Shown: positions 4,857-63,315 of the stretch, one piece after another | Layout: every line of letters starts with the position of its first letter | Position numbering within the stretch: the first letter of the stretch is position 1 | Assembly: GCA_050183625.1 (NCBI GenBank) | Contig: JBFXBD010000008.1 | Coordinates: 2,521-66,520, forward strand | Origin: Gammaproteobacteria bacterium | Lineage (GTDB): Bacteria > Pseudomonadota > Gammaproteobacteria > JADZEE01 | Direction of reading: 5' to 3' | Length of the DNA: 64,000 nucleotides | Made by a program: the position numbers and the translations under genes | The notes under the pieces: model-generated | What the model was told of the DNA's origin: nothing | The model's database searches: none | Seen by the model: only the letters and a program-made list of their open reading frames with translations

Positions 4857-5698
4857 CGGCAGGCCAGCAGGGTGAGATCGTCGCCGCGCCCGCCACGCGC
4901 GTGGCGCTGGACTTCGCCGAGCAACCGGTCGAGCAGGGTCTCCGGATCGGTGCCGCGATTCGCTTCCAGGGTCTGGACTATCCGCTGCGGACCGAACGAC
5001 CCGCCGGCACGGTCGCGGGCCTCCGGCACGCCGTCCGTGTAGGCCACCACCGTGTCGCCGGGTGCGAGGCGGCAGGTCTCGGTGACGTACGGCACGGGCT
5101 CCTCGGCGAACTGGCCGAGTGCGCAACCGCCCTCCGCGAAGCCCCGGATCGGCCCCTGCGCGGGCAGCACCAGGATGCTCGGGTGGCCGGCATGGCTCAC
5201 CGCCAGGGTCCCGTCGCGCCCGACGCGAAAGTAGGCCGCGGTCACCGCGCAGCCGGTGGGGTGCACGCAGAGCTGGGCGTTCAGCCGCGCCAGCATCTGG
5301 TGCGGGGGCAGATCCCGGCGCAGGCCGTCCAGCGCCGATTGCAGCAGCATGGTCATGAACGCCGCCGACAGGCCGTGGCCGGTGGCGTCGCCCAGCAGCA
5401 CGCCCAGTTCGCCCTCGCGGTTCAGGTGCAGGTGGTAGATGTCGCCCGAGACCTCGCGGAACGGCCAGTACCGGATCGCGGTCGAAAGGTGCGGCAGCAC
5501 CGGCGGCACCGGCAGGATCGCGCGCTGGAACTGGGCCGCCATGCGCAGGTCGTCGCGCAGTTGCTTGTTGCGCTCGATGAGCAGCTTCTCGACCCGCTGG
5601 CGCTTGGCGATCTCACGCCGGAGCATGGCATTCGCCCGCGCCAGCATGAGCGGATCGGTCTCGATCCCGTGGATGGACTGCCCGGCTGCCTGCCCCAT
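4820..5698 (-). CDS. PP2C-family (SpoIIE/RsbU-like) serine phosphatase with N-terminal coiled coil
   Basis: 292 aa. Has SGDIYHL...GDATGHG...DG and C-terminal GDDLTLL motifs typical of the SpoIIE/PP2C domain. Its 3' end overlaps the mscK end convergently by 37 nt. Confidence 0.8.
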   Translation of the reverse strand: MGQAAGQSIHGIETDPLMLARANAMLRREIAKRQRVEKLLIERNKQLRDDLRMAAQFQRAILPVPPVLPHLSTAIRYWPFREVSGDIYHLHLNREGELGVLLGDATGHGLSAAFMTMLLQSALDGLRRDLPPHQMLARLNAQLCVHPTGCAVTAAYFRVGRDGTLAVSHAGHPSILVLPAQGPIRGFAEGGCALGQFAEEPVPYVTETCRLAPGDTVVAYTDGVPEARDRAGGSFGPQRIVQTLEANRGTDPETLLDRLLGEVQRHARGGRGDDLTLLACRYGDMGVAPPAA

Positions 5699-5838: not shown

Positions 5839-8268
5839 ATGAACACCGAACTCGACAGGAAGCAGGACGCCGGCCCTGAAGCCGTCGCGGGTGGCGAAAC
5901 GCTCGACGCCCCGCGATCCGCCGCGACCGCCGAACGCGCATTGCCCGCCGACGCGATGATCGTCATCCCGGTGCGCAATGCGGTGCTGTTCCCGGGTGCG
6001 ATCATGCCGCTGGGGATCGGCCGCGCTTCCTCGATCGCCGCCGCCCGCGAGGCGGTCGCGCACGAGCGCCCGATCGCCGTGCTGCTGCAGCGCGATCCGG
6101 CACAGGACAACCCCGGCCCGGACGACCTGCACTGGGTGGGCACCGAGGCCCAGGTGATGCGGTTCATCGGCGGGCAGAACGGCCATCACATGATCTGCCA
6201 GGGCGAGCGGCGCGTGCGCGTGCTGCAGTTCCTGGAAGGCTGGCCGTACCTGGTTGCCCGTGTGTCGCGGGTGGAGGAGACAGCGCAGACCGGCAACGAG
6301 ATCGACGCCCGGGTGATGAGCCTGCGCGAGCGCGTGTCCGAAATCCTGCAACTCATGCCGCAGGTGCCGGCGGAATTCGCTGCCGGCCTGCAGAACGTGG
6401 AATCCGGCCGCCGGCTGGCCGACCTCGTCGCCGGCCTGCTGGACGTCACGATCGCGCAAAAGCAGGAACTGCTGGAGACCTTCGATCTGCGCGAGCGCCT
6501 GGACCGCGTCCTCGTGCACCTGGGCCAGCGCCTGGACGTGCTGCGCCTGTCCAGGCAGATCGACGACCAGACCCGCAGCTCGCTGGAAGACCAGCAGCGC
6601 AGGCACCTGCTGCGCGAGCAGATGAAGACGATCCGCAAGGAACTGGGCGAGGAGGGCGAACGCGACGAGGAACTGGAGGACCTCGAGCGCCGGATCGCCG
6701 AGGCGAAGATGCCGGCCGAGGTGGAGAAGCAGGCGCGCAAGGAACTCGCGCGGCTGCAGCGCATGCCCGACGGCGCCGGCGAGGCGTCCATGGTGCGCAC
6801 CTACCTGGAATGCCTGGTCGAGCTGCCGTGGGCGCCCGAAGACCCGCCCGCGATAGACATCGCCCGCGCGCGCGAGGTGCTGGACGCCGATCACTTCGGC
6901 CTGCAGAAGATCAAGCGCCGGATCCTGGAATACCTCGCCGTGCGCAAGCTCAATCCGAACGGCAGGAGCCCGATCCTGTGCTTCGTCGGCCCGCCGGGCG
7001 TGGGCAAGACATCGCTCGGGCAGAGCATCGCCCGCGCGACCGGCCGCAGGTTCGAGCGCCTGAGCCTGGGCGGCGTGCACGACGAGGCCGAGATCCGGGG
7101 CCATCGCCGCACCTACATCGGCTCGATGCCGGGCAACGTCATCCAGGGCGTGCGCAAGGCCGGCACCCGCAACGCCGTGTTCATGCTCGATGAGATCGAC
7201 AAGCTCGGGGCGGGCGGCTTCCACGGCGATCCGTCCTCGGCGCTGCTGGAGGTGCTGGATCCGGAGCAGAACTCGACGTTCCGGGACAACTACCTCGGGG
7301 TGCCGTTCGACCTGTCGCGGATCATGTTCATCGCCACCGCGAACGTGCTGGAGACCATCCCCGGCCCGTTGCGTGACCGCATGGAGATCGTCCAGCTCGC
7401 CGGCTACACCGAGCAGGAGAAGATCGAGATCGCGCGCCGGTACCTGCTGCGCCGGCAGCTGGAGGTCAACGGCCTGGATGCCGATCGCTGCAGCGTGGAC
7501 GACGGCACGCTGCGCGCATTGGTGCACGACTACACCCGCGAGGCCGGGGTGAGAAACCTGGAGCGCGAGCTGGGCGCGGTGCTGCGCCACGCCGCGGTGC
7601 GGATCGCCGAGGGCGAGGCCGGGCCCATCGAACTGCGCGCCGGGTCGCTGCCGGGGATCCTCGGCCCGGCGAAGTTCGAGAGCGAGATCGCCATGCACGC
7701 CGGCGTGCCGGGCGTGGCGACCGGCCTGGCGTGGACGCCGGTGGGCGGGGACATCCTGTTCATCGAGTCCACGCGCGTGCCGGGCGGCGCGCGCCTCATC
7801 CTCACCGGCCAGCTCGGCGAGGTGATGAAGGAGAGCGCGCAGGCCGCGGTGTCGCTGGTGAAGGCACGTGCCGCGGCGCTGGGCGTGGATCCGGAGTCGT
7901 TCGAGAAAAGCGACCTGCACCTGCACGTGCCGGCCGGCGCTACCCCCAAGGACGGTCCGAGCGCGGGCGTGGCGCTGTTCGTGTCGCTGGTGTCCCTGCT
8001 CACCGGCCGCGCGGTGCGGCCGGACACGGCGATGACCGGCGAGATCAGCCTGCGCGGGCTGGTGCTGCCGGTCGGCGGCATCAAGGAGAAGGTGCTGGCC
8101 GCTCAGCGCGCCGGGATCACGCGCGTGCTGCTGCCGGCGCGCAACCGCAAGGACATGGAGGACATCCCGGCCGAGATCCGCGACGCGCTCGAGTTCCACT
8201 TCATCGAACGCGTGGACGACGCGCTGCAACTGGCGCTCGCGGCGGTGGTGGAGCCGGCCGCGGCCTGA
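5839..8268 (+). CDS. lon: ATP-dependent Lon protease
   Basis: LON N-domain (IVIPVRNAVLFPG). Walker A GPPGVGKTSLGQSIA. Protease-domain catalytic Ser in PKDGPSAGVALF. ATG at 5839 preceded by AGGA. The upstream MCVARL... start is less plausible. Confidence 0.9.
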   Translation: MNTELDRKQDAGPEAVAGGETLDAPRSAATAERALPADAMIVIPVRNAVLFPGAIMPLGIGRASSIAAAREAVAHERPIAVLLQRDPAQDNPGPDDLHWVGTEAQVMRFIGGQNGHHMICQGERRVRVLQFLEGWPYLVARVSRVEETAQTGNEIDARVMSLRERVSEILQLMPQVPAEFAAGLQNVESGRRLADLVAGLLDVTIAQKQELLETFDLRERLDRVLVHLGQRLDVLRLSRQIDDQTRSSLEDQQRRHLLREQMKTIRKELGEEGERDEELEDLERRIAEAKMPAEVEKQARKELARLQRMPDGAGEASMVRTYLECLVELPWAPEDPPAIDIARAREVLDADHFGLQKIKRRILEYLAVRKLNPNGRSPILCFVGPPGVGKTSLGQSIARATGRRFERLSLGGVHDEAEIRGHRRTYIGSMPGNVIQGVRKAGTRNAVFMLDEIDKLGAGGFHGDPSSALLEVLDPEQNSTFRDNYLGVPFDLSRIMFIATANVLETIPGPLRDRMEIVQLAGYTEQEKIEIARRYLLRRQLEVNGLDADRCSVDDGTLRALVHDYTREAGVRNLERELGAVLRHAAVRIAEGEAGPIELRAGSLPGILGPAKFESEIAMHAGVPGVATGLAWTPVGGDILFIESTRVPGGARLILTGQLGEVMKESAQAAVSLVKARAAALGVDPESFEKSDLHLHVPAGATPKDGPSAGVALFVSLVSLLTGRAVRPDTAMTGEISLRGLVLPVGGIKEKVLAAQRAGITRVLLPARNRKDMEDIPAEIRDALEFHFIERVDDALQLALAAVVEPAAA

Positions 8269-51292: not shown

Positions 51293-51356
51293 GTATCCGT
51301 CCCCCGTTGCGTGACGGGCATTGTGCACGCGCGGCGTGCGCGGGCGAAAGATCCGT

Positions 51357-53042
<1,686 letters not shown>

Positions 53043-53222
53043 GGTCCGTCCATTATATCGGTGCGGGCCGCCGCACCGCGCCCCGGGTTGCGGCTGCCGC
53101 CTGCCGGCGGGCCGCGCATCGGCGCTGCGCCCGGCGGGCGCCGGGAACACGCGCGCCGCGCGCCGGTCCGACCTGCTGCGCGCCGTACCACGCGGCGCCG
53201 GCCACCCCGGGAGATCCGCCCC

Positions 53223-53885
53223 ATGCGACTGCTGCTGATCGAGGACGACCCCATGATCGGCGCCGCGCTTCAGAAAGGCTTGCAACAGGAAGGCCACGCC
53301 GTGGACTGGGTGCGCGACGGCGACGCCGCGGACCGCGCGCTCGCGGCCGAGCCGTACGCGCTGGCCGTGCTCGACCTGGGCCTGCCGGGGCGGGACGGCC
53401 TGGCCGTGCTGGCCGGACTGCGCCGGCGCGGCAACGTGGTGCCGGTGATCATCGCCACCGCGCGCGATGGCCGCGCGGACGTGGTGAGAGGCCTGGACCT
53501 GGGTGCCGACGACTACGTCGTCAAGCCCTTCGACCTGGAGGAACTGGCGGCGCGGATCCGCGCCGTCCTGCGCCGCCATGCCGGCCGTGCCGCGTCGCGG
53601 GTGACGCATGGTGCGCTGGAGGTCGATCTCGGCACCCGCGAAGTCCTCTGTCGCGGCCGCCGGGTGGAGTTGTCCGCGCGCGAGTTCGCCCTGCTGGCCG
53701 CGCTCCTGGAACGCCCGGGCGCGGTGCTGTCGCGCGCTCAACTGGAGGAGCGGCTGTACGGCTGGGGCGAGGAGGTCGCCAGCAACGCGGTGGAGGTCCA
53801 CATCCACCACCTGCGCAGGAAGCTCGGCGAGGGCGTCATCCGCAACGTGCGCGGCGTGGGCTACACCCTGAGCGCGGGCCGCTGA
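53223..53885 (+). CDS. OmpR-family response regulator (QseB/PmrA-like)
   Basis: Receiver domain [14 protein letters not shown]-terminal winged helix ending GVGYTL. Confidence 0.9.
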
Positions 53886-53886
53886 A

Positions 53887-55212
53887 GTGTCCCTGCGCAA
53901 TCGCCTGATCGGGGCTCTGCTCGCCGCGCTGGTCGCGACCGGCCTGTTCGCGAGCTGGTGGACCTACGTCGGTGCACGGCGCGAGATCGACGCCCTGTTC
54001 GACTACCAGCTTCGCCAGCAGGCATTGGCACTGCGCGACCGGGTATTTCCGCTGAGCGGCCTGTTCCTGTCGCACGAGAACGCCGACCAGGAGATCGTCA
54101 TCCAGGTCTGGGACTGGCGCGGTTCGCGCCTGTACAGCTCGCACCGGCTGCTGCCGCTGCCTCAGCGCTACCAGATCGGATTCTCCAATTTCAGGTCCGG
54201 CGGCAAGGACTGGCGCGCGTTTGCGCTCGTGGCAGGCACCGAGATCATCCAGGTCGCCCAGCCGCTCAGCGTGCGCCGGACGATGGCGGCGCGCGCGGGG
54301 CTGCGGATCCTGGTTCCGATCCTGCTGGTGCTGCCGCTGTTCGGCCTGCTGGTGTGGTGGATCGTCGGCCGCGCGCTGCGTCCCCTGGATGCACTGGCGC
54401 GCACCATCGGCGCGCGCGATCAGAATTCGCTGGCGCCCGTGCCGGTGCAGGGGCTGCCCGCCGAGACCCGGCCGATGATCCGGGCGCTGAACGATCTGCT
54501 CGAACGCCTCGCACGCGCCCTGGAACTGCAGCGCCAGTTCACCGCGGACGCCGCCCACGAACTGCGCACGCCTCTGGCGGCGGTGCGGCTGCAGGCACAG
54601 GTGCTCGAACGCGCACAGGGCACGGCCGAACGCACCGCGGCGGCGGCGGACCTGAAGTCGGGCGTGGATCGTGCGGCGCACCTGGTCGACGGCCTGCTGA
54701 CGCTGGCGCGCCTGGAGCCGGATGCGGCCGACGCGCGCGCCGCGCCGCTCGATCTGGCCTCCTTCGTGCGCGATTTGGCCGCGCGCTACGCGCCGCTCGC
54801 GGCGGCAAAGGGCCAGGTATTGCAAGTGGCCGAATGCGCGGACGCACGGATTCACGCGGGGGAACCTGCGCTGAACGCGCTCATCGGCAATCTCGTCGAC
54901 AACGCGATCCGCTACACCCCCGAAGGCGGGCGGATCGATGTCGCCATGGCGCGCGAGAACTCGTCGGCGGTGCTGTCGATCGTCGATTCCGGCCCAGGCA
55001 TCCCGGCGCATGAACGCGCGCGCGTCTTCGATCGCTTCTACCGCCTGCCCGGCAACGGTGCGCCCGGCAGCGGCCTGGGGCTGGCCATCGCCCGGCGCGC
55101 CGCCGACGTACTCGGCGCCACCATCGTTCTGGAAGACCCGCCCACCGGGACGGGGCTGGCGGTGCGGGTTCGGATCCCGGTTGAACGACACGAAATCCGC
55201 TCAGGAGAATGA
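53887..55212 (+). CDS. sensor histidine kinase (QseC/PmrB-like)
   Basis: GTG start 2 nt after the regulator stop. Two TM helices, HAMP, HisKA H-box [12 protein letters not shown], HATPase G-boxes ([16 protein letters not shown]). Confidence 0.85.
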
Positions 55213-55357
55213 TTCACGCACGGCTTCCTGTTTTGGGGCATCGCGCCTGCGCCGCCGGCTCCATGCCCCCATGGATACTGTACAGATATCCATAAAACAT
55301 GGAAAATACGATCGTGGGATTGACACAGCATGCCAGGGGCGGCGGAGATAAAATACT

Positions 55358-56272
55358 GTGAAGAGCCATCAATTCGGCGGTAGCTGGACTGATACGAAGC
55401 TCGAAATCCTGAGGCAGTACCTGATTCCGTATCGCCAGATCTTTACGACATCCGCGAAAGCGAAACACTTCAAGACCATATATATAGATGCGTTTGCCGG
55501 AACGGGCGAGAGGGTGGATCCAAATCTCAGTCCCGATGTGGCGGATCTCATCGGAGATACTGACCCGAGTGAGCGCGACGCTTACAAGAAGGGTAGCGCG
55601 CGAATTGCGCTTGAAGTCACCCCTCCGTTCGATCGCTACGTTTTTGTCGAGAAGCAGCCAGAGAGAAGCGCCGAACTGCGCGTGATGGTGCGCTCTGAAT
55701 TCCCGAATCTGGTACCACGTTGCAATATCGTGCAAGGCGACGCAAACGGATACCTGCAAGAGAATCTACCGCGCGTCGATTGGGATAATTGGCGCGCGGT
55801 ACTGTTTCTCGACCCGTATGGCATGGCCGTCGAATGGGAGACTATCAAGATCATCGCGGAAACAAGAGCGATTGATCTTTGGGTGCTTTTTCCGGTCGGC
55901 CAAGGCGTCAATCGGCTTTTGACTCGCGCCTCTACTCCGCCGCCGGAATGGGAGGCGCGCTTGACCAGGATGTTCGGCACGGAAGAATGGAAGGCACGGT
56001 TCTATGCGCCTTCACGACAACAGGACATCTTCGGCGATACCCCAGGGATGTTGAAGGACACGAGCTTTGACCTTATCGGAGAGTATTTTCTGGAGCGGCT
56101 CCGCGCAACGTTTGCGGGCGTCGCGCCGCACGCGGCGAAGCTCGAGAATTCGCGCAACGTTCCGCTGTATTGGTTGTGCTTCGCCGCGGGGAACCCACGA
56201 GGGGCCGGGATCGCGGTGAAAATCGCAAACCACTTGCTAGGTCAGCAGGCGCGTCAACGACGCAAGAAGTAG
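55358..56272 (+). CDS. tcmP: three-Cys-motif partner protein TcmP
   Basis: GTG start after GGAG. N-terminus HQFGGSWTDTKLEILRQYLIPY matches the TcmP family. Sits in a low-GC islet. Confidence 0.75.
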   Translation: MKSHQFGGSWTDTKLEILRQYLIPYRQIFTTSAKAKHFKTIYIDAFAGTGERVDPNLSPDVADLIGDTDPSERDAYKKGSARIALEVTPPFDRYVFVEKQPERSAELRVMVRSEFPNLVPRCNIVQGDANGYLQENLPRVDWDNWRAVLFLDPYGMAVEWETIKIIAETRAIDLWVLFPVGQGVNRLLTRASTPPPEWEARLTRMFGTEEWKARFYAPSRQQDIFGDTPGMLKDTSFDLIGEYFLERLRATFAGVAPHAAKLENSRNVPLYWLCFAAGNPRGAGIAVKIANHLLGQQARQRRKK

Positions 56273-56288
56273 AGCGAGGGATTGGACC

Positions 56289-57044
56289 ATGGCGACGAGA
56301 ACGTCCATAGAATGGACTGAAATGACGTGGAATCCGGTGACGGGGTGCACGAAGATCAGCCAGGGCTGCAAGCACTGCTATGCGGAGCGAATGGCCAATA
56401 GACTGAAGGCGATGGGAGCTGAACGTTACGTGCGTGGGTTTAGGCTCAGCATCCATGAGGATTTAATGGATATGCCTAGGCGCTGGCGGCGGCCGCGTCT
56501 GGTTTTCGTCAATTCCATGAGCGATCTATTTCAAGATGGGGTTCCGGACGTCGTCATCGACCGCGTGTTTTCGACTATGGCAGCATGCCCCCAGCATACG
56601 TTCCAGGTGCTGACCAAGCGATCCGAACGCCTGATGGCGTTGAGCGGCAGGTTGCCCTGGCCGGAAAACGTCTGGATGGGCGTGAGCGTGGAGAGCCGTG
56701 ACCATTTGGATAGGATCGACCACTTGGCACGCGTGCCGGCCTCCGTGAGATTCCTGTCCTGCGAGCCGCTACTAGGGCCGCTCGAAAACCTGCCATTGGA
56801 TGGGATCCATTGGGTCATCGTCGGTGGAGAGTCCGGCCCGAAAGCGCGACCGATGCAAGGCGAATGGGTGGAATCCGTTCGGAAACAATGTGCCGAAGAC
56901 AACGTCGCTTTTTTCTTTAAGCAATGGGGTGGTGTAAGAAAAAGCCGTACCGGACGAAGTCTCAATGGGGTGACATACGATCAGATGCCGGTCCGAGCTG
57001 TGCCGGACCACCGACGGTCCGAAGCGCGTCCAGAGATGGGTTAA
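56289..57044 (+). CDS. phage Gp37/Gp68-family protein (DUF5131, three-Cys-motif protein), partner of TcmP
   Basis: N-terminal SIEWTEMTWNPVTGCTKISQGCKHCYAE, the CxxxxxxCxxC motif with IEWT/TWNP signature of DUF5131. 251 aa. Confidence 0.85.
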   Translation: MATRTSIEWTEMTWNPVTGCTKISQGCKHCYAERMANRLKAMGAERYVRGFRLSIHEDLMDMPRRWRRPRLVFVNSMSDLFQDGVPDVVIDRVFSTMAACPQHTFQVLTKRSERLMALSGRLPWPENVWMGVSVESRDHLDRIDHLARVPASVRFLSCEPLLGPLENLPLDGIHWVIVGGESGPKARPMQGEWVESVRKQCAEDNVAFFFKQWGGVRKSRTGRSLNGVTYDQMPVRAVPDHRRSEARPEMG

Positions 57045-57120
57045 GTCTGGCTTAAGCCTGCGCTCCTAAGCTGCCTTCCATCCGGTGACCTTCGTCACCC
57101 GACAGGAACAGGAGGCAGCC

Positions 57121-58587
57121 ATGAATCCGAAAACCTTCCGGCGTAGCGCCATCGTCGCCGCGATCGTGCCGGCGGCGATCTGGGGCGCGTGGACCCTGCA
57201 TGCGGACCCCGGCGCAATCGATCGCCTGCACCTGCCCGGCATCGCCTCGGCGCAGGCCGCGGATACGGCCGCCGCGGCGCCCACGCGGCTCGCCGCGCTG
57301 CCGGATTTCTCGGCGCTCGTCGCCCAGGCCAGCCCGGCGGTGGTGGCGATCCGGGTCACCCAGACCACCCGCACCGCCTTCAATCCGGGCGGCATGCCGA
57401 TGGATCGCGACGATCCGTTCTACGAGTTCTTCCGCCGCTTCCAGATGCCGGGTGGCCAGGGCGGCCCCGGTGCCGGGCGGCCGCAGCGGCAGGGCATCGG
57501 CTCGGGCTTCATCGTCTCTGCGGACGGCTACGTGCTCACCAACGCGCACGTGGTGGCCAATGCGGACGAAGTCACGGTCAAGCTCGCCGACAAGCGCGAG
57601 CTGACGGCCAAGGTGGTCGGCAGCGACGACAAGAGCGATGTCGCGCTGCTCAAGGTCGACGCCGGCGACCTGCCCACGCTGAGGATCGGTGACCCGGGCA
57701 AGCTGCGCGTGGGCGAGTGGGTGGCCGCGATCGGCTCGCCGTTCGGCCTGGAGAGCACGGTCACCGCCGGCATCGTCAGCGCCAAGGGCCGGGAGATCGG
57801 TGACGACAGCTACGTGCCCTTCATCCAGACAGACGTGCCAATCAACCCCGGCAATTCGGGTGGCCCGCTGCTCAACATGAACGGCGAGGTGGTGGGCATC
57901 AATTCGCAGATCTTCAGCCGTAGCGGCGGCTACATGGGGTTGTCGTTTTCGATCCCGATCGACGTCGCGATGCGGGTCGAGCGCCAGCTTGCCCGGCATG
58001 GCAAGGTCGAGCGCGGATTGCTCGGCGTCACCGTGCAGAGCGTGACGCCCGAGCTCGCCGATTCCTTCCGCCTCGATGGCGCCGATGGCGCACTGGTCAG
58101 CGGCGTGACGAACGGATCGCCCGCCGACAAGGCCGGGATCCGGGCCGGCGACGTGGTCCGCAACGTCAACGGCAAGGCGGTGAGCGGTGCGGCGGATCTC
58201 TCTCGCGCCATCGCCGATCTCGCGCCGGGCGAGAAGGCCCATCTCGTCCTGCGCCGCGAAGGCAAGGACGTGGAACTCGATGTCGCCGTCGGCCGCATGG
58301 CCGGACCGGACGTGGCCGACGCGGGCGACACCGGCGCCGGCACCGGCAGGCTCGGGGTGATGGTGCGCCCTGCCGACGATGGCGATGGCGGCCTGCTGGT
58401 CGAGCGCGTGACCGGGCCGGCGGCGCGGGCCGGCATCGAGCCGGGCGACGTGATCGTGGCGGTGAACACGCAGCGGGTGAAGGATCCGGAGCAGTTGAAG
58501 AAGCTGGTGGCGCGTGCGGACAAGACCGTGGCGCTGCTCATCCGCCGCAACGACGCGGAGATATTCGTGCCGGTGAAGATCGGGTAG
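57121..58587 (+). CDS. degP: DegP/HtrA-family periplasmic serine endoprotease with two PDZ domains (MucD-like)
   Basis: ATG after GGAGG. Catalytic triad context HVV...D...GNSGGPL, two PDZ domains. Signal peptide. Confidence 0.9.
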   Translation: MNPKTFRRSAIVAAIVPAAIWGAWTLHADPGAIDRLHLPGIASAQAADTAAAAPTRLAALPDFSALVAQASPAVVAIRVTQTTRTAFNPGGMPMDRDDPFYEFFRRFQMPGGQGGPGAGRPQRQGIGSGFIVSADGYVLTNAHVVANADEVTVKLADKRELTAKVVGSDDKSDVALLKVDAGDLPTLRIGDPGKLRVGEWVAAIGSPFGLESTVTAGIVSAKGREIGDDSYVPFIQTDVPINPGNSGGPLLNMNGEVVGINSQIFSRSGGYMGLSFSIPIDVAMRVERQLARHGKVERGLLGVTVQSVTPELADSFRLDGADGALVSGVTNGSPADKAGIRAGDVVRNVNGKAVSGAADLSRAIADLAPGEKAHLVLRREGKDVELDVAVGRMAGPDVADAGDTGAGTGRLGVMVRPADDGDGGLLVERVTGPAARAGIEPGDVIVAVNTQRVKDPEQLKKLVARADKTVALLIRRNDAEIFVPVKIG

Positions 58588-58596
58588 GTGAAGCGG

Positions 58597-58632
58597 TGGC
58601 GCAGGGCGGCGGCGGGCTCCTCCTCCCCTGCC
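58597..58632. terminator. GC-rich hairpin between convergent degP and acvB/virJ genes (putative bidirectional terminator)
   Basis: GGCGGCGGCGGG-ctcctcctcc-CCTGCCGCCGCC, an 11/12-bp stem. No U-tract. Confidence 0.4.
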
Positions 58633-58658
58633 GCCGCCCGGCGCCTTGGGCACCCGGG

Positions 58659-60005
58659 TCAATTCGCAGCTTCGGCGGCGCCGATGGCCGACTCGATCCG
58701 TGCCGAGAGACGTTCGAAATCGCCGTCGAAATGATGTCCGCCGACAACCGCTTCCACCCGCGTCCCGCGAGCCTGCGGGGTACGGCATAACGAATCGTCG
58801 CCTTCCTCCGTACCGTAGATGCACTGCACCCGTCCGGGCGGCATCGCGCGCAGTTCCGGAGCGGTCGGCAGGGCCTGCGGATCGGCAAAGTCCCCGAACC
58901 ACTCGTCGAGATGGATTTCGAAACCCGCCTTCAGCCCGGGCGCCAGCAGCGCAACCAGGCGCACCTGCCGGCGGCGCGCGTCCGCGAGGCGGTTGTAGAG
59001 GAACGGCAGTACATCGGCGCCGAAGGAATAACCCACCAGCACCGCCTCGCGGCTACCGGTGGCGTGCAGGTAATGTGCGAGAACCCGGTCCAGATCCGCG
59101 GCGGCCTGCGCCGGCGTTCGCCGCGACCAGAAATAGCGCAGGCAGTCGAATCCCACCACCGCATAGCCTTGCCCGGCCATGACCTCGGCGATGCGCTTGT
59201 CCAGGTCGCGCCAGCCGCCGTCGCCGCTCAGGATTACGACCAGCATGCCGCGCCGGGACTGCAACCCCACTTCAACCAGCGGCAGATCCGCCAGCCCAGA
59301 CGGCCCGGTGCCCGGATGCCCGATCAGTGCGTCGACGGCGGCTCCAACCCGCTTGTCGAGTGCGGTGCCGCCCGGCGCAGGCACGCGCACGCGGGGGATC
59401 GAGGACTTGCGGTAGCTTGCAATCTCAGCCTCGCGGGCCCCGCCGCCGGAATCCAGCAACCACGGCGCGTTGAGTTTCACGCCCGGCGGCAGCGCGGTGA
59501 GCGGTTGTGGTACGAGGCCGCAGAACGGCCGCGACAGGCGCAGGTGGGGTTGCAGATCCAGGCTCGCACCGCCGCGGAAGGCGAGTGGCCCGGCCTGCGC
59601 GAGCGCCACGTATACCAGCGCCGCGCCGATGCCCCGGCCGACCAGGATCGGTGCGTGGAATCCGCCGCCCAGCGCATGTTGCGCATTGCGGCCGAGCCAT
59701 TCCAGCGGGCCGGCGATGTCGATGCACGGGTCGTCGCGGCGCGCGAGCAGGGCGATCGCCTGCGCGGTGTCGATCACGGCAATCGCGATGCCGGCGCCGG
59801 CGAGCGCGCCGATGGCGGCTTCGTCGTCGGCGCGCAGGCCCTGCACGCCGCTGAAATAGATCGCGAAATCCGCGGCGGCAGTCGGCGCCCGCACGCGCAC
59901 CGTGCCGAACTCGGCGGTCTTTACGGAGGGTACGGCCGCGGCATGGGCGCCGCAGATCGCCACCAGGGCGAAAAGAAGCGCACGCGCGAGGCGTCGGTCA
60001 GCCAA
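58659..60005 (-). CDS. AcvB/VirJ-family alpha/beta-hydrolase (putative lysyl-phosphatidylglycerol hydrolase)
   Basis: C-terminal VirJ domain (VVILSGDGGWRDLDK...VVGFDCLRYFW...GYSFGADVLPF). Signal peptide via TTG start (MADRRLARALLFALVAICGAHAAA). The ORF-track 5' extension is rejected. Confidence 0.7.
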   Translation of the reverse strand: MADRRLARALLFALVAICGAHAAAVPSVKTAEFGTVRVRAPTAAADFAIYFSGVQGLRADDEAAIGALAGAGIAIAVIDTAQAIALLARRDDPCIDIAGPLEWLGRNAQHALGGGFHAPILVGRGIGAALVYVALAQAGPLAFRGGASLDLQPHLRLSRPFCGLVPQPLTALPPGVKLNAPWLLDSGGGAREAEIASYRKSSIPRVRVPAPGGTALDKRVGAAVDALIGHPGTGPSGLADLPLVEVGLQSRRGMLVVILSGDGGWRDLDKRIAEVMAGQGYAVVGFDCLRYFWSRRTPAQAAADLDRVLAHYLHATGSREAVLVGYSFGADVLPFLYNRLADARRRQVRLVALLAPGLKAGFEIHLDEWFGDFADPQALPTAPELRAMPPGRVQCIYGTEEGDDSLCRTPQARGTRVEAVVGGHHFDGDFERLSARIESAIGAAEAAN

Positions 60006-60544
60006 GGCAGCAGGCCGTGGACATGGCGCGCGGATTATAGGCGCCCGCGATGCGCCTCGCACCGGTGCGCTCAGGCGACGAAGAAGGCGAACCAGAGCCC
60101 CGCTCCCACCATCGCCACGATGCCGCCGATGAACAGGCGGTCGGCAAGGCGTTCGGCGGACTCGGCGCGCCGCGCGTCCGGCCGCCGCAGCGAGAGGTAC
60201 GAGGCAATGACACTGGCCAGGAAGACGACCGCGTCCAGAGACAGCAGTTCGTCGATCGCACCGTGCCGGATCTGGCCCGGAGCAAGGTTCACGATGCTGA
60301 TGACGGTCATGCAGATGCCGACCATCGTCGCCGATGTGGGCAGGATATGGGAGGAGAGGCGATCGTTGCTCATCGGGCTCGCAGGCTGGCACCGGGCCAG
60401 TCCCGGTGCCCCGATTCGACCACCCCGCGGTCTTCCGGTTCGCGCGAATCGGACACGGCCCGCCGGCGCAACTACAATTCGACTCAATTCTCGTGCGCGT
60501 CACCGCGAGAAGGCGCATCGGCCGCGGCAATTCCCGCCGCGCCA

Positions 60545-60685
60545 ACCATGAGCCGCGTCCCGTCATTGCGAGGCCGCTTAGCGGCCGCCGCAATCCATGC
60601 GGCCTGGACGCGTTCGGCGCCGCATGGTCCGCTTCGCTGCGCCGGCGACGACGAAGGGGCGGTTCATGGCCTCGATTTGAAGGAG
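60545..60685. repeat. REP/MITE-like repeat, copy E
   Basis: cgtcattgcgagg...gcggccgccgcaatccatgcggc...ggtccgcttcgctgcgccggcgacgacgaagg modules. Confidence 0.7.
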
Positions 60686-60726
60686 TCCGGTCCGGTTCTA
60701 CCTCGCGATGGTGGGGTGCGGTTGCG

Positions 60727-63315
60727 ATGACAGATTCGGCGATTGCGCGCGAGGCCGCCTCTTCCTGGCGCTGGCTGCAGCGCACCGCGGGGATTGGCGC
60801 GGGCGCGCTGGTGTTCGCTTTCGCCGCTTTCGCCGTGCACCGCCTCTCGGGTGAATTGAGCCTGCGCGACCTGCGCGCGGCGGTCGGAAATCTGTCATGG
60901 CGCCAGCTCGCGGCAGCCCTGGCGTGCGCCGCGGCAAGCTTCGTGCTGTTGTACGGCTACGATCGTTCCGCGCTGCACTATCTCGGCCGGCGCCTGCCGG
61001 CGCCGCTGGTGGCGTTCACCTCTTTCTGCGCCTACGCCATCGGCAACGCCGTCGGCGTGAGCTTGCTGTCGGGCGGTTCCATCCGATACCGCATGTACCT
61101 TGCGGCCGGCATGGACGGCGCCGACGTCGCCCGCATCACGGCGTTCAACATGCTCGCCTTCGGCGTCGGTGTCGGCGCGGTGGGTGCGGTGGCGCTGATG
61201 CTGCACCCGGAGGCGATGGCACATGTGACCGGCGCGAGCGCTTACCTGCTCGCCGCGGCGGGCGGCGCCGTGAGCGCAATGGTGGCAGGGTTCGTCCTGC
61301 TGTGCTTCGTGCGACCGGCGCCGATCACGCTCGGTCCCTGGCGGGTACGGCTGCCGAGCGGCCGCACCGCGCTGCTGCAGCTGGTGATCTCGGCGGCGGA
61401 CATCGCCGTGTCCGGGTTGTGCCTGTACGTGCTGCTGCCGGGGCACGGCGTGCCGTACACGGCTTTCCTGGCGGTGTACGCGGTCGCCACCGTTGCCGGC
61501 GTGATCAGCCACGTGCCCGGCGGGGTCGGCGTGTTCGAGACGATCATGCTGCTGGCGTTCCGGGACCACATGACCGTCCAGGGCCTGGGCGCGGCGCTCG
61601 TCGGGTACCGGTTCGTCTATTACCTGCTGCCGCTCCTGGCAGCGGCGATGCTGCTCGCCACGCGCGAGCTCAGAAGCAGCCTGCAACCGCTCGCGATTGG
61701 CCTGCGCGGGGCGGCGCGGATCGGCAACCGCTTCGCGCCGCTGGCGGTCGCGGTGCTGGCCTTCCTGTCCGGCGTGGTGCTGCTGTGGTCGTCCGCAACG
61801 CCGGCCGTGCCGGAGCGCCTGCTCGCGCTGCAACGGATCATGCCCCTGTTCGTGCTGGAGATCTCGCACGTGTTCGGCGCGGTGATCGGCCTGGCTTTGC
61901 TGGTGATCGCGCGCGGCCTGTTCCGAAAGCTCAACGGCGCCTGGTTGCTGGCACTGGGGCTGTCTGCCGCCGGCAGCGCGATCTCGCTCGCCAAGGGCAT
62001 CGATTACGAGGAGGGCCTGCTCCTGCTGCTGGTGACCGCGACGCTGTGGGTGTCGAGACGCCAGTTCTACCGTCGTACCAAGCTCGTGGACGCACCGCTG
62101 TCGCCGGGCTGGCTGGTGGCGCTTTCGGCAGCGCTGGCAGGCGCGGCGATGCTGGTGCTGTTTTCGTTCAAGCACGTCGAGTACCGCAACGCGCTGTGGT
62201 GGCAGTTCGGCTATCACGCGGAAGCGGCGCGGTCGATGCGCGCGACGCTGGCCGGCGCGGCGGCGCTCATCGCCTTCGCGCTCGTGCAGATGCTGCGCCC
62301 GGCCCGGGCGCACCCGCACCCGCCGGATCGCGCCGAAATGGCGCGTGCCGAGCGCATCGTGCGGTCCCAGCCGGGCGTGGTGGCGATGCTCGCCCTGACC
62401 GGCGACAAGCGGCTGTTGTTTGCGGATGAGGATGGCGGGTTCGTGATGTACGGCACGCGCGGCAGGAGCTGGGTGGCCATGGGCGATCCGGTCGGTCCGC
62501 CGCAGGTGCAGGAGGATCTCGCCTGGCAGTTCCGAGAACTGGCCGATCGCGAGGGCGGACGGGTGGCGTTCTACCAGACCCGCCCGCAGACGCTGCCAAT
62601 CTACGTCGACATGGGCCTGATTCCGTTCAAGCTCGGCGAGGAGGCGGTGATAGTGCTGCCGGAGTTCTCGCTCGATGGTGCCGCACGCAAGGTGCTGCGC
62701 GCGGCGAACAGCCGCGGCGCGCGCGACGGCCTGAGCCTGGAAATCGTCGGACGCGACCGGGTCGCGGCGCATCTGGAGGCGATGCGATCGGTCTCGGACC
62801 GCTGGCTCGCAGCAAAGAACACGCGCGAGAAGCGCTTCTCGATCGGCGCGTTCGACCCGGGCTATGTCGGCCGCTGCGACGCTGCACTCGTACGCCGCGG
62901 CGATGCCGTGGTGGCGTTCGCCACGCTGATGACCACTGATCGGCGCGAGGAGATCTCGGTGGATCTCATGCGACACACGAATGCGGCCCCTGCCTCGACG
63001 ATGATGTACCTGTTCGTGCAGCTACTGCTGCACTACAAGGCTGCGGGCTACGGGCGCTTCAACCTGGGCATGGCGCCGTTGTCGGGCCTGGAGCACCACC
63101 CGCTGGCGCCGCTCTGGCACCGCTTCGGGCATCTGCTCTACAACCGCGGCGAGCGGTTCTACAACTTCCAGGGCCTGAGGCTGTTCAAGGACAAGTTCGA
63201 CCCGCAGTGGGAGCCGCGCTATCTCGTCACCCAGGGCGGCCTGAACCCGCTCATCGTCATGGCCGACGTCGCCGCGCTGATTGCGGGAGGCATTGGTGGA
63301 ATCGTCGCCAAGTAG
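60727..63315 (+). CDS. mprF: lysylphosphatidylglycerol synthase/flippase MprF (LpiA-like)
   Basis: 862 aa: N-terminal ~14-TM flippase domain plus C-terminal synthase domain (DUF2156-like, RFSIGAFDPGY...MAPLSGLE). Divergent from acvB/virJ. Confidence 0.9.
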   Translation: MTDSAIAREAASSWRWLQRTAGIGAGALVFAFAAFAVHRLSGELSLRDLRAAVGNLSWRQLAAALACAAASFVLLYGYDRSALHYLGRRLPAPLVAFTSFCAYAIGNAVGVSLLSGGSIRYRMYLAAGMDGADVARITAFNMLAFGVGVGAVGAVALMLHPEAMAHVTGASAYLLAAAGGAVSAMVAGFVLLCFVRPAPITLGPWRVRLPSGRTALLQLVISAADIAVSGLCLYVLLPGHGVPYTAFLAVYAVATVAGVISHVPGGVGVFETIMLLAFRDHMTVQGLGAALVGYRFVYYLLPLLAAAMLLATRELRSSLQPLAIGLRGAARIGNRFAPLAVAVLAFLSGVVLLWSSATPAVPERLLALQRIMPLFVLEISHVFGAVIGLALLVIARGLFRKLNGAWLLALGLSAAGSAISLAKGIDYEEGLLLLLVTATLWVSRRQFYRRTKLVDAPLSPGWLVALSAALAGAAMLVLFSFKHVEYRNALWWQFGYHAEAARSMRATLAGAAALIAFALVQMLRPARAHPHPPDRAEMARAERIVRSQPGVVAMLALTGDKRLLFADEDGGFVMYGTRGRSWVAMGDPVGPPQVQEDLAWQFRELADREGGRVAFYQTRPQTLPIYVDMGLIPFKLGEEAVIVLPEFSLDGAARKVLRAANSRGARDGLSLEIVGRDRVAAHLEAMRSVSDRWLAAKNTREKRFSIGAFDPGYVGRCDAALVRRGDAVVAFATLMTTDRREEISVDLMRHTNAAPASTMMYLFVQLLLHYKAAGYGRFNLGMAPLSGLEHHPLAPLWHRFGHLLYNRGERFYNFQGLRLFKDKFDPQWEPRYLVTQGGLNPLIVMADVAALIAGGIGGIVAK

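Follow-up and report, generated by a model that had tools for sequence, protein, structure and literature searches.

What lies between the sensor histidine kinase gene and degP in a gammaproteobacterial housekeeping cluster, and what might it do for its bearer? The question is raised by a 64,000-nt stretch of contig JBFXBD010000008.1 (positions 2,521 to 66,520; assembly GCA_050183625.1, Gammaproteobacteria bacterium), hereafter the window, for which a first-pass annotation made from the sequence alone had described an islet of low guanine plus cytosine (GC) content holding exactly two genes between the histidine kinase (HK) stop codon (55212) and degP (57121). The coordinates, the content and the GC drop were all confirmed, and the two peptides quoted with them are both present in the translations. 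The first gene, tcmP (55358..56272, + strand), encodes a three-Cys-motif partner protein of 304 amino acids (aa) from a GTG start, with the N-terminus MKSHQFGGSWTDTKLEILRQYL; the second (56289..57044, +) encodes a DUF5131 (phage Gp37/Gp68) protein of 251 aa that contains GCTKISQGCKHCYA. They are co-directional and separated by 16 nt, and the NCBI annotation of the source metagenome-assembled genome already gives names to both proteins. Our analysis indicates that the TcmP/DUF5131 pair is a widespread and already catalogued candidate anti-phage module, and that the window copy is a clean example of it rather than a new kind.

The low-GC stretch is a tight insertion of a horizontally acquired, self-contained two-gene operon between the HK gene and the degP control region, because relatives lack it, because the control region resumes at the last stop codon of the cassette, and because its base composition is foreign to the locus. 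The native cluster of the window, of stress-response type and conserved in relatives, comprises an OmpR-family response regulator (RR) gene (53223..53885, +; assigned from its translation), the HK gene on the left flank of the insertion (53887..55212, +; 2CSK_N, HAMP, HisKA and HATPase_c domains) and, on the right flank, degP (57121..58587, +), whose ATG lies behind AGGAGG and whose product is a DegP/HtrA-type serine protease with Trypsin_2 and two PDZ domains. The closest HK orthologues that we looked up (P0245 and P0246; 55–58% identity) come from two contigs (L011 and L012) in which RR, HK and DegP genes are contiguous, with HK–DegP spacers of 92 and 128 bp and a Response_reg plus Trans_reg_C protein encoded directly upstream of HK. 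The window and L011 further share a lysyl-phosphatidylglycerol (LPG) synthase gene downstream of DegP. The isolated insertion proposed by the first-pass annotation is therefore borne out.

Both junctions could be placed to approximately ±5 bp, the nearest relatives being only 55–58% identical in HK. On the right, a TTAAG-N6-TTAAG direct repeat upstream of degP (57041..57056, +) is shared, down to its 11-nt phasing, with the HK–DegP spacers of L011 (~4960–4985) and L012 (~6830–6850). Its first TTAAG copy (57041) overlaps the TAA stop codon of the DUF5131 gene, so that the native degP box resumes at that stop and the junction falls at ~57040; this putative regulator box is intact. The OmpR-family regulator encoded next door probably binds at this repeat, in which case degP would be one of its targets. 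On the left, a native GC-rich tail remains 3′ of the HK stop (55213..55265, +; GC 0.68 vs 0.47 over the next 92 nt) and is similar to the sequence, likewise GC-rich, that precedes the TTAAG box in both relatives. This sets the left junction at ~55263–55272, with 47% GC from 55266 on, and the Logan assembly of run SRR27751815 independently shows the same HK–tcmP junction.

Between these limits (55266–57041), GC is 56.5%, compared with 0.694 ± 0.025 for all other segments of 1776 nt (z = −5.2), and no segment of that length in the whole 64 kb is lower. When followed in 300-nt steps, GC falls from ~0.70 to 0.52–0.60 across the islet and is back to 0.72 at 57050. GC at third codon positions (GC3) tells the same story, with 0.65 for tcmP and 0.66 for the DUF5131 gene vs 0.83–0.92 for the surrounding genes (0.85 in HK and 0.90 in degP). 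A dead remnant is unlikely, because both open reading frames (ORFs) are intact and keep all the invariant residues of their families.

With regard to the mode of insertion, the target-site duplication for which the earlier annotation had suggested looking did not appear: searches of the junctions for such duplications or for terminal inverted repeats returned only short matches at chance level. An 8-mer, GCCTGCGC, is present at 55244 and 57060, but we rejected it as a target duplication, since its location with respect to the native TTAAG box is wrong for a duplication and since it is itself a chance-level match. No integrase, tRNA or convincing flanking direct repeat, as would mark an integrase-mediated island or a prophage remnant, was found at the locus. 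The absence of neighbouring prophage genes was noted correctly before; within ~±14 kb the neighbours are all housekeeping genes (Kup, ABC transporter, porin, sigma-54 activator, NnrU, GlnRS, VirJ and MprF), and the cassette is neither embedded in nor adjoining any defence system. A homology search of genome contigs with HK, aimed at an empty site in a close relative, retrieved only distant kinases (23–35% identity).

The cassette is compact (~1.78 kb) and consists of a 92-nt leader and the two genes, with nothing more. The AT-rich leader (55266..55357, +; 46.7% GC) is presumed to hold the promoter or operator, although a sigma-70 consensus scan gave no match in it; a GGAG stands 11 nt upstream of the GTG codon. 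At the very start of the leader is a palindrome, ATGGATA-N9-TATCCAT (55271–55293), with CTGTACAG in its spacer. It could serve as an operator, or else be the scar of a recombination event. When the upstream regions of six cassettes were aligned, the palindrome was not conserved in the five others, and no conserved operator emerged. An imperfect 17-nt hairpin (55235–55269) is located just 3′ of the HK stop, at the inferred left junction; a TTTT precedes rather than follows it. Within the tcmP coding region there is an inverted repeat (55767–55801) with 15-nt arms that are 87% complementary and a 5-nt gap, followed by CTGTTTCTCG. This hairpin was the sole terminator-like match of a terminator scan and may be due to chance. 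The Rfam and tRNA scans of the window gave no match.

The family assignments of both genes are clear. TcmP matches TIGR04474 with 201.1 bits (E = 3e-59) over profile positions 2–260 of 263, compared with an NCBIfam cut-off of 53 bits, and it has the adjacent PF07505 three-Cys-motif gene that this family calls for. The DUF5131 protein matches PF07505 with 338.4 bits over profile positions 2–243 of 243 (gathering threshold 28.9) and also matches phrog_2045. The gene names and the Cys motif of the first-pass annotation are thus correct, whereas the accession that it attached to DUF5131, PF17046, is not the matching family. Both families are large. TcmP comprises 4,792 clusters at 50% identity (E <= 1e-3), almost all of ~295 aa, and DUF5131 homologues gave >8,000 matches. 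Across the TcmP family we found no real domain fusions: a 552-aa candidate (P0361) is a near-exact tandem self-repeat, most likely an assembly or gene-calling artefact, and matches of 382–412 aa carry only unconserved N-terminal extensions.

Structure prediction gave TcmP a Rossmann fold of the S-adenosylmethionine (SAM) methyltransferase type, with RlmJ, Trm1 and RsmD nearest, followed by many further class I methyltransferases. TcmP is set apart from those three enzymes by an additional beta-rich region at its C-terminus and by a disordered insert (residues 49–77). Its motif I, D44-x-F-A-G-x-G50, has the form of a SAM-binding motif I, and D44, F46, A47, G48 and G50 are 100% conserved; G79-S80...A84 and the N-terminal H4-x-F-G-G-x-W-T-x-x-K14 are likewise invariant. 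Motif IV, D152-P-Y-G-M156, is also invariant and is one Pro shorter than (D/N/S)-P-P-(Y/F/W). Enzymes of the RlmJ, Trm1 and RsmD kind flip a purine out of the nucleic acid and methylate its exocyclic amine. The predicted model suggests that TcmP is a SAM-methyltransferase-fold protein of this exocyclic-amine, base-flipping kind, with methylation as its predicted activity.

At the sequence level, TcmP has no significant match to RlmJ (23S rRNA m6A2030), Trm1 (tRNA m2,2G26) or RsmD (16S m2G966). Among 63 TcmP relatives, weak Pfam matches to TRM (9/63), Cons_hypoth95 (RsmD; 6/63) and RlmJ (3/63) were obtained, with best E values between 5e-4 and 1.5e-3; the window TcmP itself matches no Pfam family and reaches the thresholds of none of PF04378, PF02005 and PF03602. 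By eye, ‘YIDAFAGTG’ in TcmP parallels ‘YLDTHAGAG’ in RlmJ and ‘KGSARIA’ parallels ‘PGSPLIA’, and hhalign set ‘FLD-PYGM’ of the TcmP profile on ‘LIDPPYEM’ of E. coli RlmJ with a non-significant probability of 1.6%. Motif IV is D-P-P-Y in RlmJ compared with D-P-Y-G in TcmP. A D-P-F-G motif, as may be present in Trm1, would be nearer to that of TcmP. TcmP further differs from these three enzymes by its constant linkage to a radical-SAM-type gene. Searches of PDB sequences with TcmP and with DUF5131, each as single sequence and as profile, gave no real match; chemokine entries matched by DUF5131 were spurious.

The DUF5131 protein carries C20-x6-C27-x2-C30, and this motif is invariant in 53 homologues. 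It is predicted to form a partial TIM barrel nearest to spore photoproduct lyase (SPL), lipoyl synthase and viperin; SPL is its best full-length Foldseek match, and the RNA-modifying radical SAM enzymes RlmN and TYW1 are also among the structural matches. RadicalSAM.org places DUF5131 in Megacluster-5-2, beside SPL in 5-3 (PMC9477430). The spacing of its cysteines is CX6CX2C rather than the canonical CX3CX2C of SPL and of COG1533-type radical SAM proteins (PA0069, Rv2578c, TIGR04470); the protein is shorter (~250 aa), PF04055 is not among its Pfam matches at E <= 0.01, and no solved structure has a sequence that is detectably similar. The model and motif point to a non-canonical radical-SAM-superfamily-type protein, which would bind an iron–sulfur cluster and cleave SAM.

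Is the pair new? The first-pass annotation considered its function unknown and took a phage origin to suggest DNA modification or anti-restriction, a statement that overlooks the catalogued PADLOC candidate PDC-M41. The window proteins match PDC-M41A (386 bits) and PDC-M41B (389 bits) over their full lengths as adjacent genes, and the DUF5131 protein also matches PDC-M30B (374 bits). The PDC candidates are untested predictions made by ‘guilt by embedding’ in restriction-modification (RM), BREX and DISARM systems (bioRxiv 10.1101/2024.01.29.577857). PDC-M41 has the same two-gene architecture as the window pair; its models come from embedding in defence loci, whereas the window copy stands alone in a housekeeping cluster. 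Nor does the window pair differ at the family level from the TIGR04474/PF07505 pair, as its genes match both hidden Markov models, are adjacent and co-directional, and include the three-Cys motif. The radical SAM mobile pair (TIGR04471 protein A and TIGR04470 protein B) is likewise a mobile two-gene module of the same enzyme families, but one that lacks a methyltransferase-fold protein. DUF5131 scores 80 bits to protein A (cut-off 355), and a partner of TcmP on a Nostoc plasmid 60 bits to protein B (cut-off 410). Neither score comes near its cut-off, and the window pair thus falls outside that mobile pair.

The neighbourhoods of homologous pairs are informative with regard to function. A radical-SAM-type neighbour is present at every complete TcmP locus that we examined. 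Among viral loci (IMG/VR), DUF5131 adjoins TcmP in 48/49, and outside viruses it does so at the chromosomal loci examined and at two of three plasmid loci. The exception is a plasmid of Nostoc sp. C052 (L024 4838–6900), where the gene divergent to TcmP encodes, instead of DUF5131, a canonical radical SAM protein (PF04055; PA0069/Rv2578c/TIGR04470 type), and the two genes are immediately beside a BREX-1 locus. This swap suggests that TcmP needs a partner of the radical-SAM type and is the best indirect evidence for such a requirement. The description of DUF5131 as the ‘invariable partner’ of TcmP is therefore right for TcmP, which always has a radical-SAM-type neighbour, and wrong for DUF5131, as the phage counts given below show.

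In four chromosomal neighbourhoods the pair is in tandem, as in the window, with surroundings that are unrelated to one another; these include housekeeping genes, a position beside HicAB, and one directly after a type I hsdR with several toxin–antitoxin (TA) genes. On a Leisingera plasmid the pair adjoins two abortive infection (Abi) genes. On S. meliloti pSymA (L023 3343–9004), we found Hna (845 aa), a 308-aa TcmP, a convergent 415-aa TcmP paralogue and DUF5131, that is, two TcmP paralogues per one DUF5131; the 415-aa paralogue bears a C-terminal GMT-like winged helix-turn-helix (wHTH) domain. This TcmP pair stands beside a validated defence gene, Hna, and hna and the first TcmP gene have been listed together as a putative transcription unit (PMC12445080).

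In prophages, the commonest neighbours of the pair (IMG/VR) are HTH/Peptidase_S24 repressors, and 8/10 co-oriented ORFs immediately upstream of TcmP encode CI-like HTH/S24 repressors. The usual layout (L028–L075) is a CI-like repressor, TcmP and a convergent DUF5131, which is unlike the tandem cassette of the window: 46 of the 48 IMG/VR pairs are convergent, with 3′ ends that overlap by 4–75 nt (median 24), and the tandem order is the minority form (2/48). The same layout occurs in Gordonia phage PantheRoc (L020 4001–7157), in which the immunity repressor is followed by TcmP (4-nt overlap) and a convergent DUF5131, with an integrase nearby. The slot behind a prophage repressor is the classical position of lysogen-expressed exclusion genes. 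Lambda rexAB stands next to cI, and prophage TcmP is likewise directly downstream of, and co-oriented with, a CI-like repressor. DarTG is similarly a two-enzyme module acting covalently on nucleic acid, as is predicted for TcmP/DUF5131. Neither rexAB nor DarTG has any sequence or fold relationship to the pair, and the window contains no prophage or repressor.

DUF5131 is more widely distributed in phages than its partner. By tblastn against INPHARED, it was detected in 181 phage records vs 5 for TcmP, and in IMG/VR it occupies at least 586 loci. Taken alone, the ratio of 5/181 overstates how often DUF5131 is solitary in phages. In the 80 closest viral DUF5131 loci, a short TcmP is present in 26 and a ~380-aa TcmP-like neighbour in 21 (L078–L152; e.g., L078 1376–2503), or ~47/80 in total. 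These ~380-aa proteins are divergent TcmP relatives (hhalign probability 99.1%, E = 8e-19) that retain F-x-G-x-G and L-D-P-F motifs and are probably of the PDC-M30A type. The remaining loci lack a TcmP-like neighbour; one such solo DUF5131 gene (307 aa) is found in Mycobacterium phage Bipper (L022 3001–4382) among early and replication genes. There it is directly followed by a gene annotated as ‘ACSH domain containing protein’, with an HNH endonuclease and a replication initiator nearby; the ‘ACSH’ gene may be a different partner of DUF5131 in lytic contexts.

What, then, would the pair do? The reading that we prefer, although we hold it only tentatively and put it at somewhat below even chances, is that the cassette is a cooperative SAM-dependent nucleic-acid-modifying module for defence or exclusion (the PDC-M41 candidate). 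Since DUF5131 also occurs by itself and TcmP does not, DUF5131 would be the catalytic core of the module, and TcmP, with its methyltransferase fold, would bind SAM and have an accessory role. DUF5131 would hold a [4Fe-4S] cluster on C20, C27 and C30 and generate a 5′-deoxyadenosyl radical from SAM. TcmP would bind SAM, flip a purine into its D-P-Y-G pocket and probably methylate the base. Both proteins would act on one nucleic-acid target, with the radical chemistry of DUF5131 taking place on or beside the flipped base, so that the joint product would be an unusual covalent modification of DNA, or possibly RNA, and the cassette would serve its host as a mobile phage-exclusion or defence module.

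Nonetheless, several points weigh against this proposal and call for caution. The cassette encodes neither a nuclease nor any other obvious effector by which a mere modification could be turned into a block to the phage. The nearest structural relatives of TcmP are RNA rather than DNA methyltransferases, so that the substrate may be RNA, and its motif IV is D-P-Y-G instead of the D-P-P-Y of RlmJ. Many phages carry DUF5131 without a recognisable TcmP, and DUF5131 can therefore work alone. Our search of the searchable literature found no functional study or experimental data on TcmP or DUF5131 and no mention of PDC-M41; DUF5131 is named in one paper and TcmP, in tables only, in two. Finally, two other PADLOC PDC candidates gave no protection when tested (PMC12409345).

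A more ambitious form of the idea is that the pair represents a new anti-phage or addiction class that acts by radical-SAM chemistry on nucleic acid. It would do so either through methyltransferase-guided radical hypermodification that cripples phage DNA or RNA, or as a DarTG-like pair with a radical SAM eraser, the solo DUF5131 of phages being a counter-defence or repair gene. We regard this as doubtful.

The writer/eraser variant, taken by itself, is unlikely. Here TcmP would be a toxic nucleic-acid methyltransferase, and DUF5131 would undo the lesion as an SPL-like radical repair enzyme, following the logic of DarTG; infection would upset the balance and lead to abortive infection, and the solo DUF5131 genes of phages would be counter-defence or repair genes. 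It would be consistent with the observation that TcmP is never seen without a radical-SAM-type neighbour while DUF5131 is often alone, especially in phages, and with SPL, a DNA repair enzyme, as the best structural relative of DUF5131. The cassette also resembles a small selfish islet, homologous pairs adjoin TA modules, and the toxin-first gene order is that of DarT–DarG. The convergent prophage copies (46/48), with their separate promoters, would however be unusual for TA pairs, and in the radical SAM mobile pair the partner of the DUF5131-like protein is an SPL-like radical SAM protein, with no methyltransferase present, which is unlike a pure antidote.

Along the lines of the first-pass annotation, the pair might be a phage-derived system for hypermodification of self DNA that shields its carrier from restriction (anti-restriction) and that would here, as a stranded moron, mark the host chromosome; this appears rather unlikely. 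The frequency of DUF5131 in phage genomes (181 INPHARED records and at least 586 IMG/VR loci), its place among the early and replication genes of Bipper, and the plausible use of SAM on nucleic acids by both proteins would agree with such a role. It is the paired form that fits poorly. Few sequenced phage isolates have it (5 records), and where it is found it adjoins the repressor in the lysogeny region, away from the replication genes; it is also carried on plasmids and in chromosomes, within defence islands. A role in host or prophage defence is the better fit to the lysogeny and defence contexts of the paired form, and phage anti-restriction the poorer one.

An RNA-modification cassette for rRNA or tRNA that has no link to defence, for example one conferring toxin or antibiotic resistance as Cfr does, is improbable. 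This would account for RlmJ, Trm1 and RsmD as the top structural relatives of TcmP and for RlmN and TYW1 among the structural matches of DUF5131, and mobile resistance genes likewise occur as isolated low-GC islets; yet what recurs next to the pair is not resistance genes or integrons but phage repressors and RM, BREX, Abi, Hna and TA genes, and some TcmP paralogues bear a wHTH DNA-binding domain. The weakest explanation, and a very improbable one, is an RM-like logic, with TcmP marking self DNA by methylation and DUF5131 acting as a ‘radical restriction enzyme’ that uses radical chemistry to damage incoming DNA without the mark: convergent 3′-overlapping pairs with separate promoters (46/48 here) are common among RM systems, TcmP is co-oriented with a constitutively expressed prophage repressor, and the pair adjoins RM and BREX loci, but neither protein has a nuclease domain, the PADLOC matches are to PDC models only, the solitary part in RM is the methyltransferase rather than, as here, the supposed restriction enzyme DUF5131, and no radical SAM enzyme is known as a nuclease.

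With regard to the rest of the locus, the region downstream of degP (58659–63315) holds a VirJ/AcvB-type gene (−) and an MprF-like LPG synthase gene (+), whose longest ORFs overlap by ~450 nt, so that the start codons need trimming. Two long ORFs near the cassette are not genes: a 616-aa ORF opposite degP (57052–58902, −) has a GC3 of 0.69 compared with 0.90 for degP, and an 854-aa ORF that merges into the response regulator (51321–53885, +) is a read-through ORF typical of high-GC DNA.

The TcmP/DUF5131 pair is very widespread, in prophages, plasmids and defence islands, and the window copy offers a minimal, cleanly delimited and apparently intact ~1.78-kb cassette with its own leader, which makes it a convenient cloning unit. 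The fold assignments replace ‘unknown function’ with specific biochemical predictions, namely an SPL-like non-canonical radical SAM enzyme acting with a protein of RlmJ/Trm1-like methyltransferase fold. If it is not true that radical SAM chemistry on nucleic acid serves here as a mechanism of defence, the cassette would be one more uncharacterised moron; if it is true, it would introduce a new effector principle.

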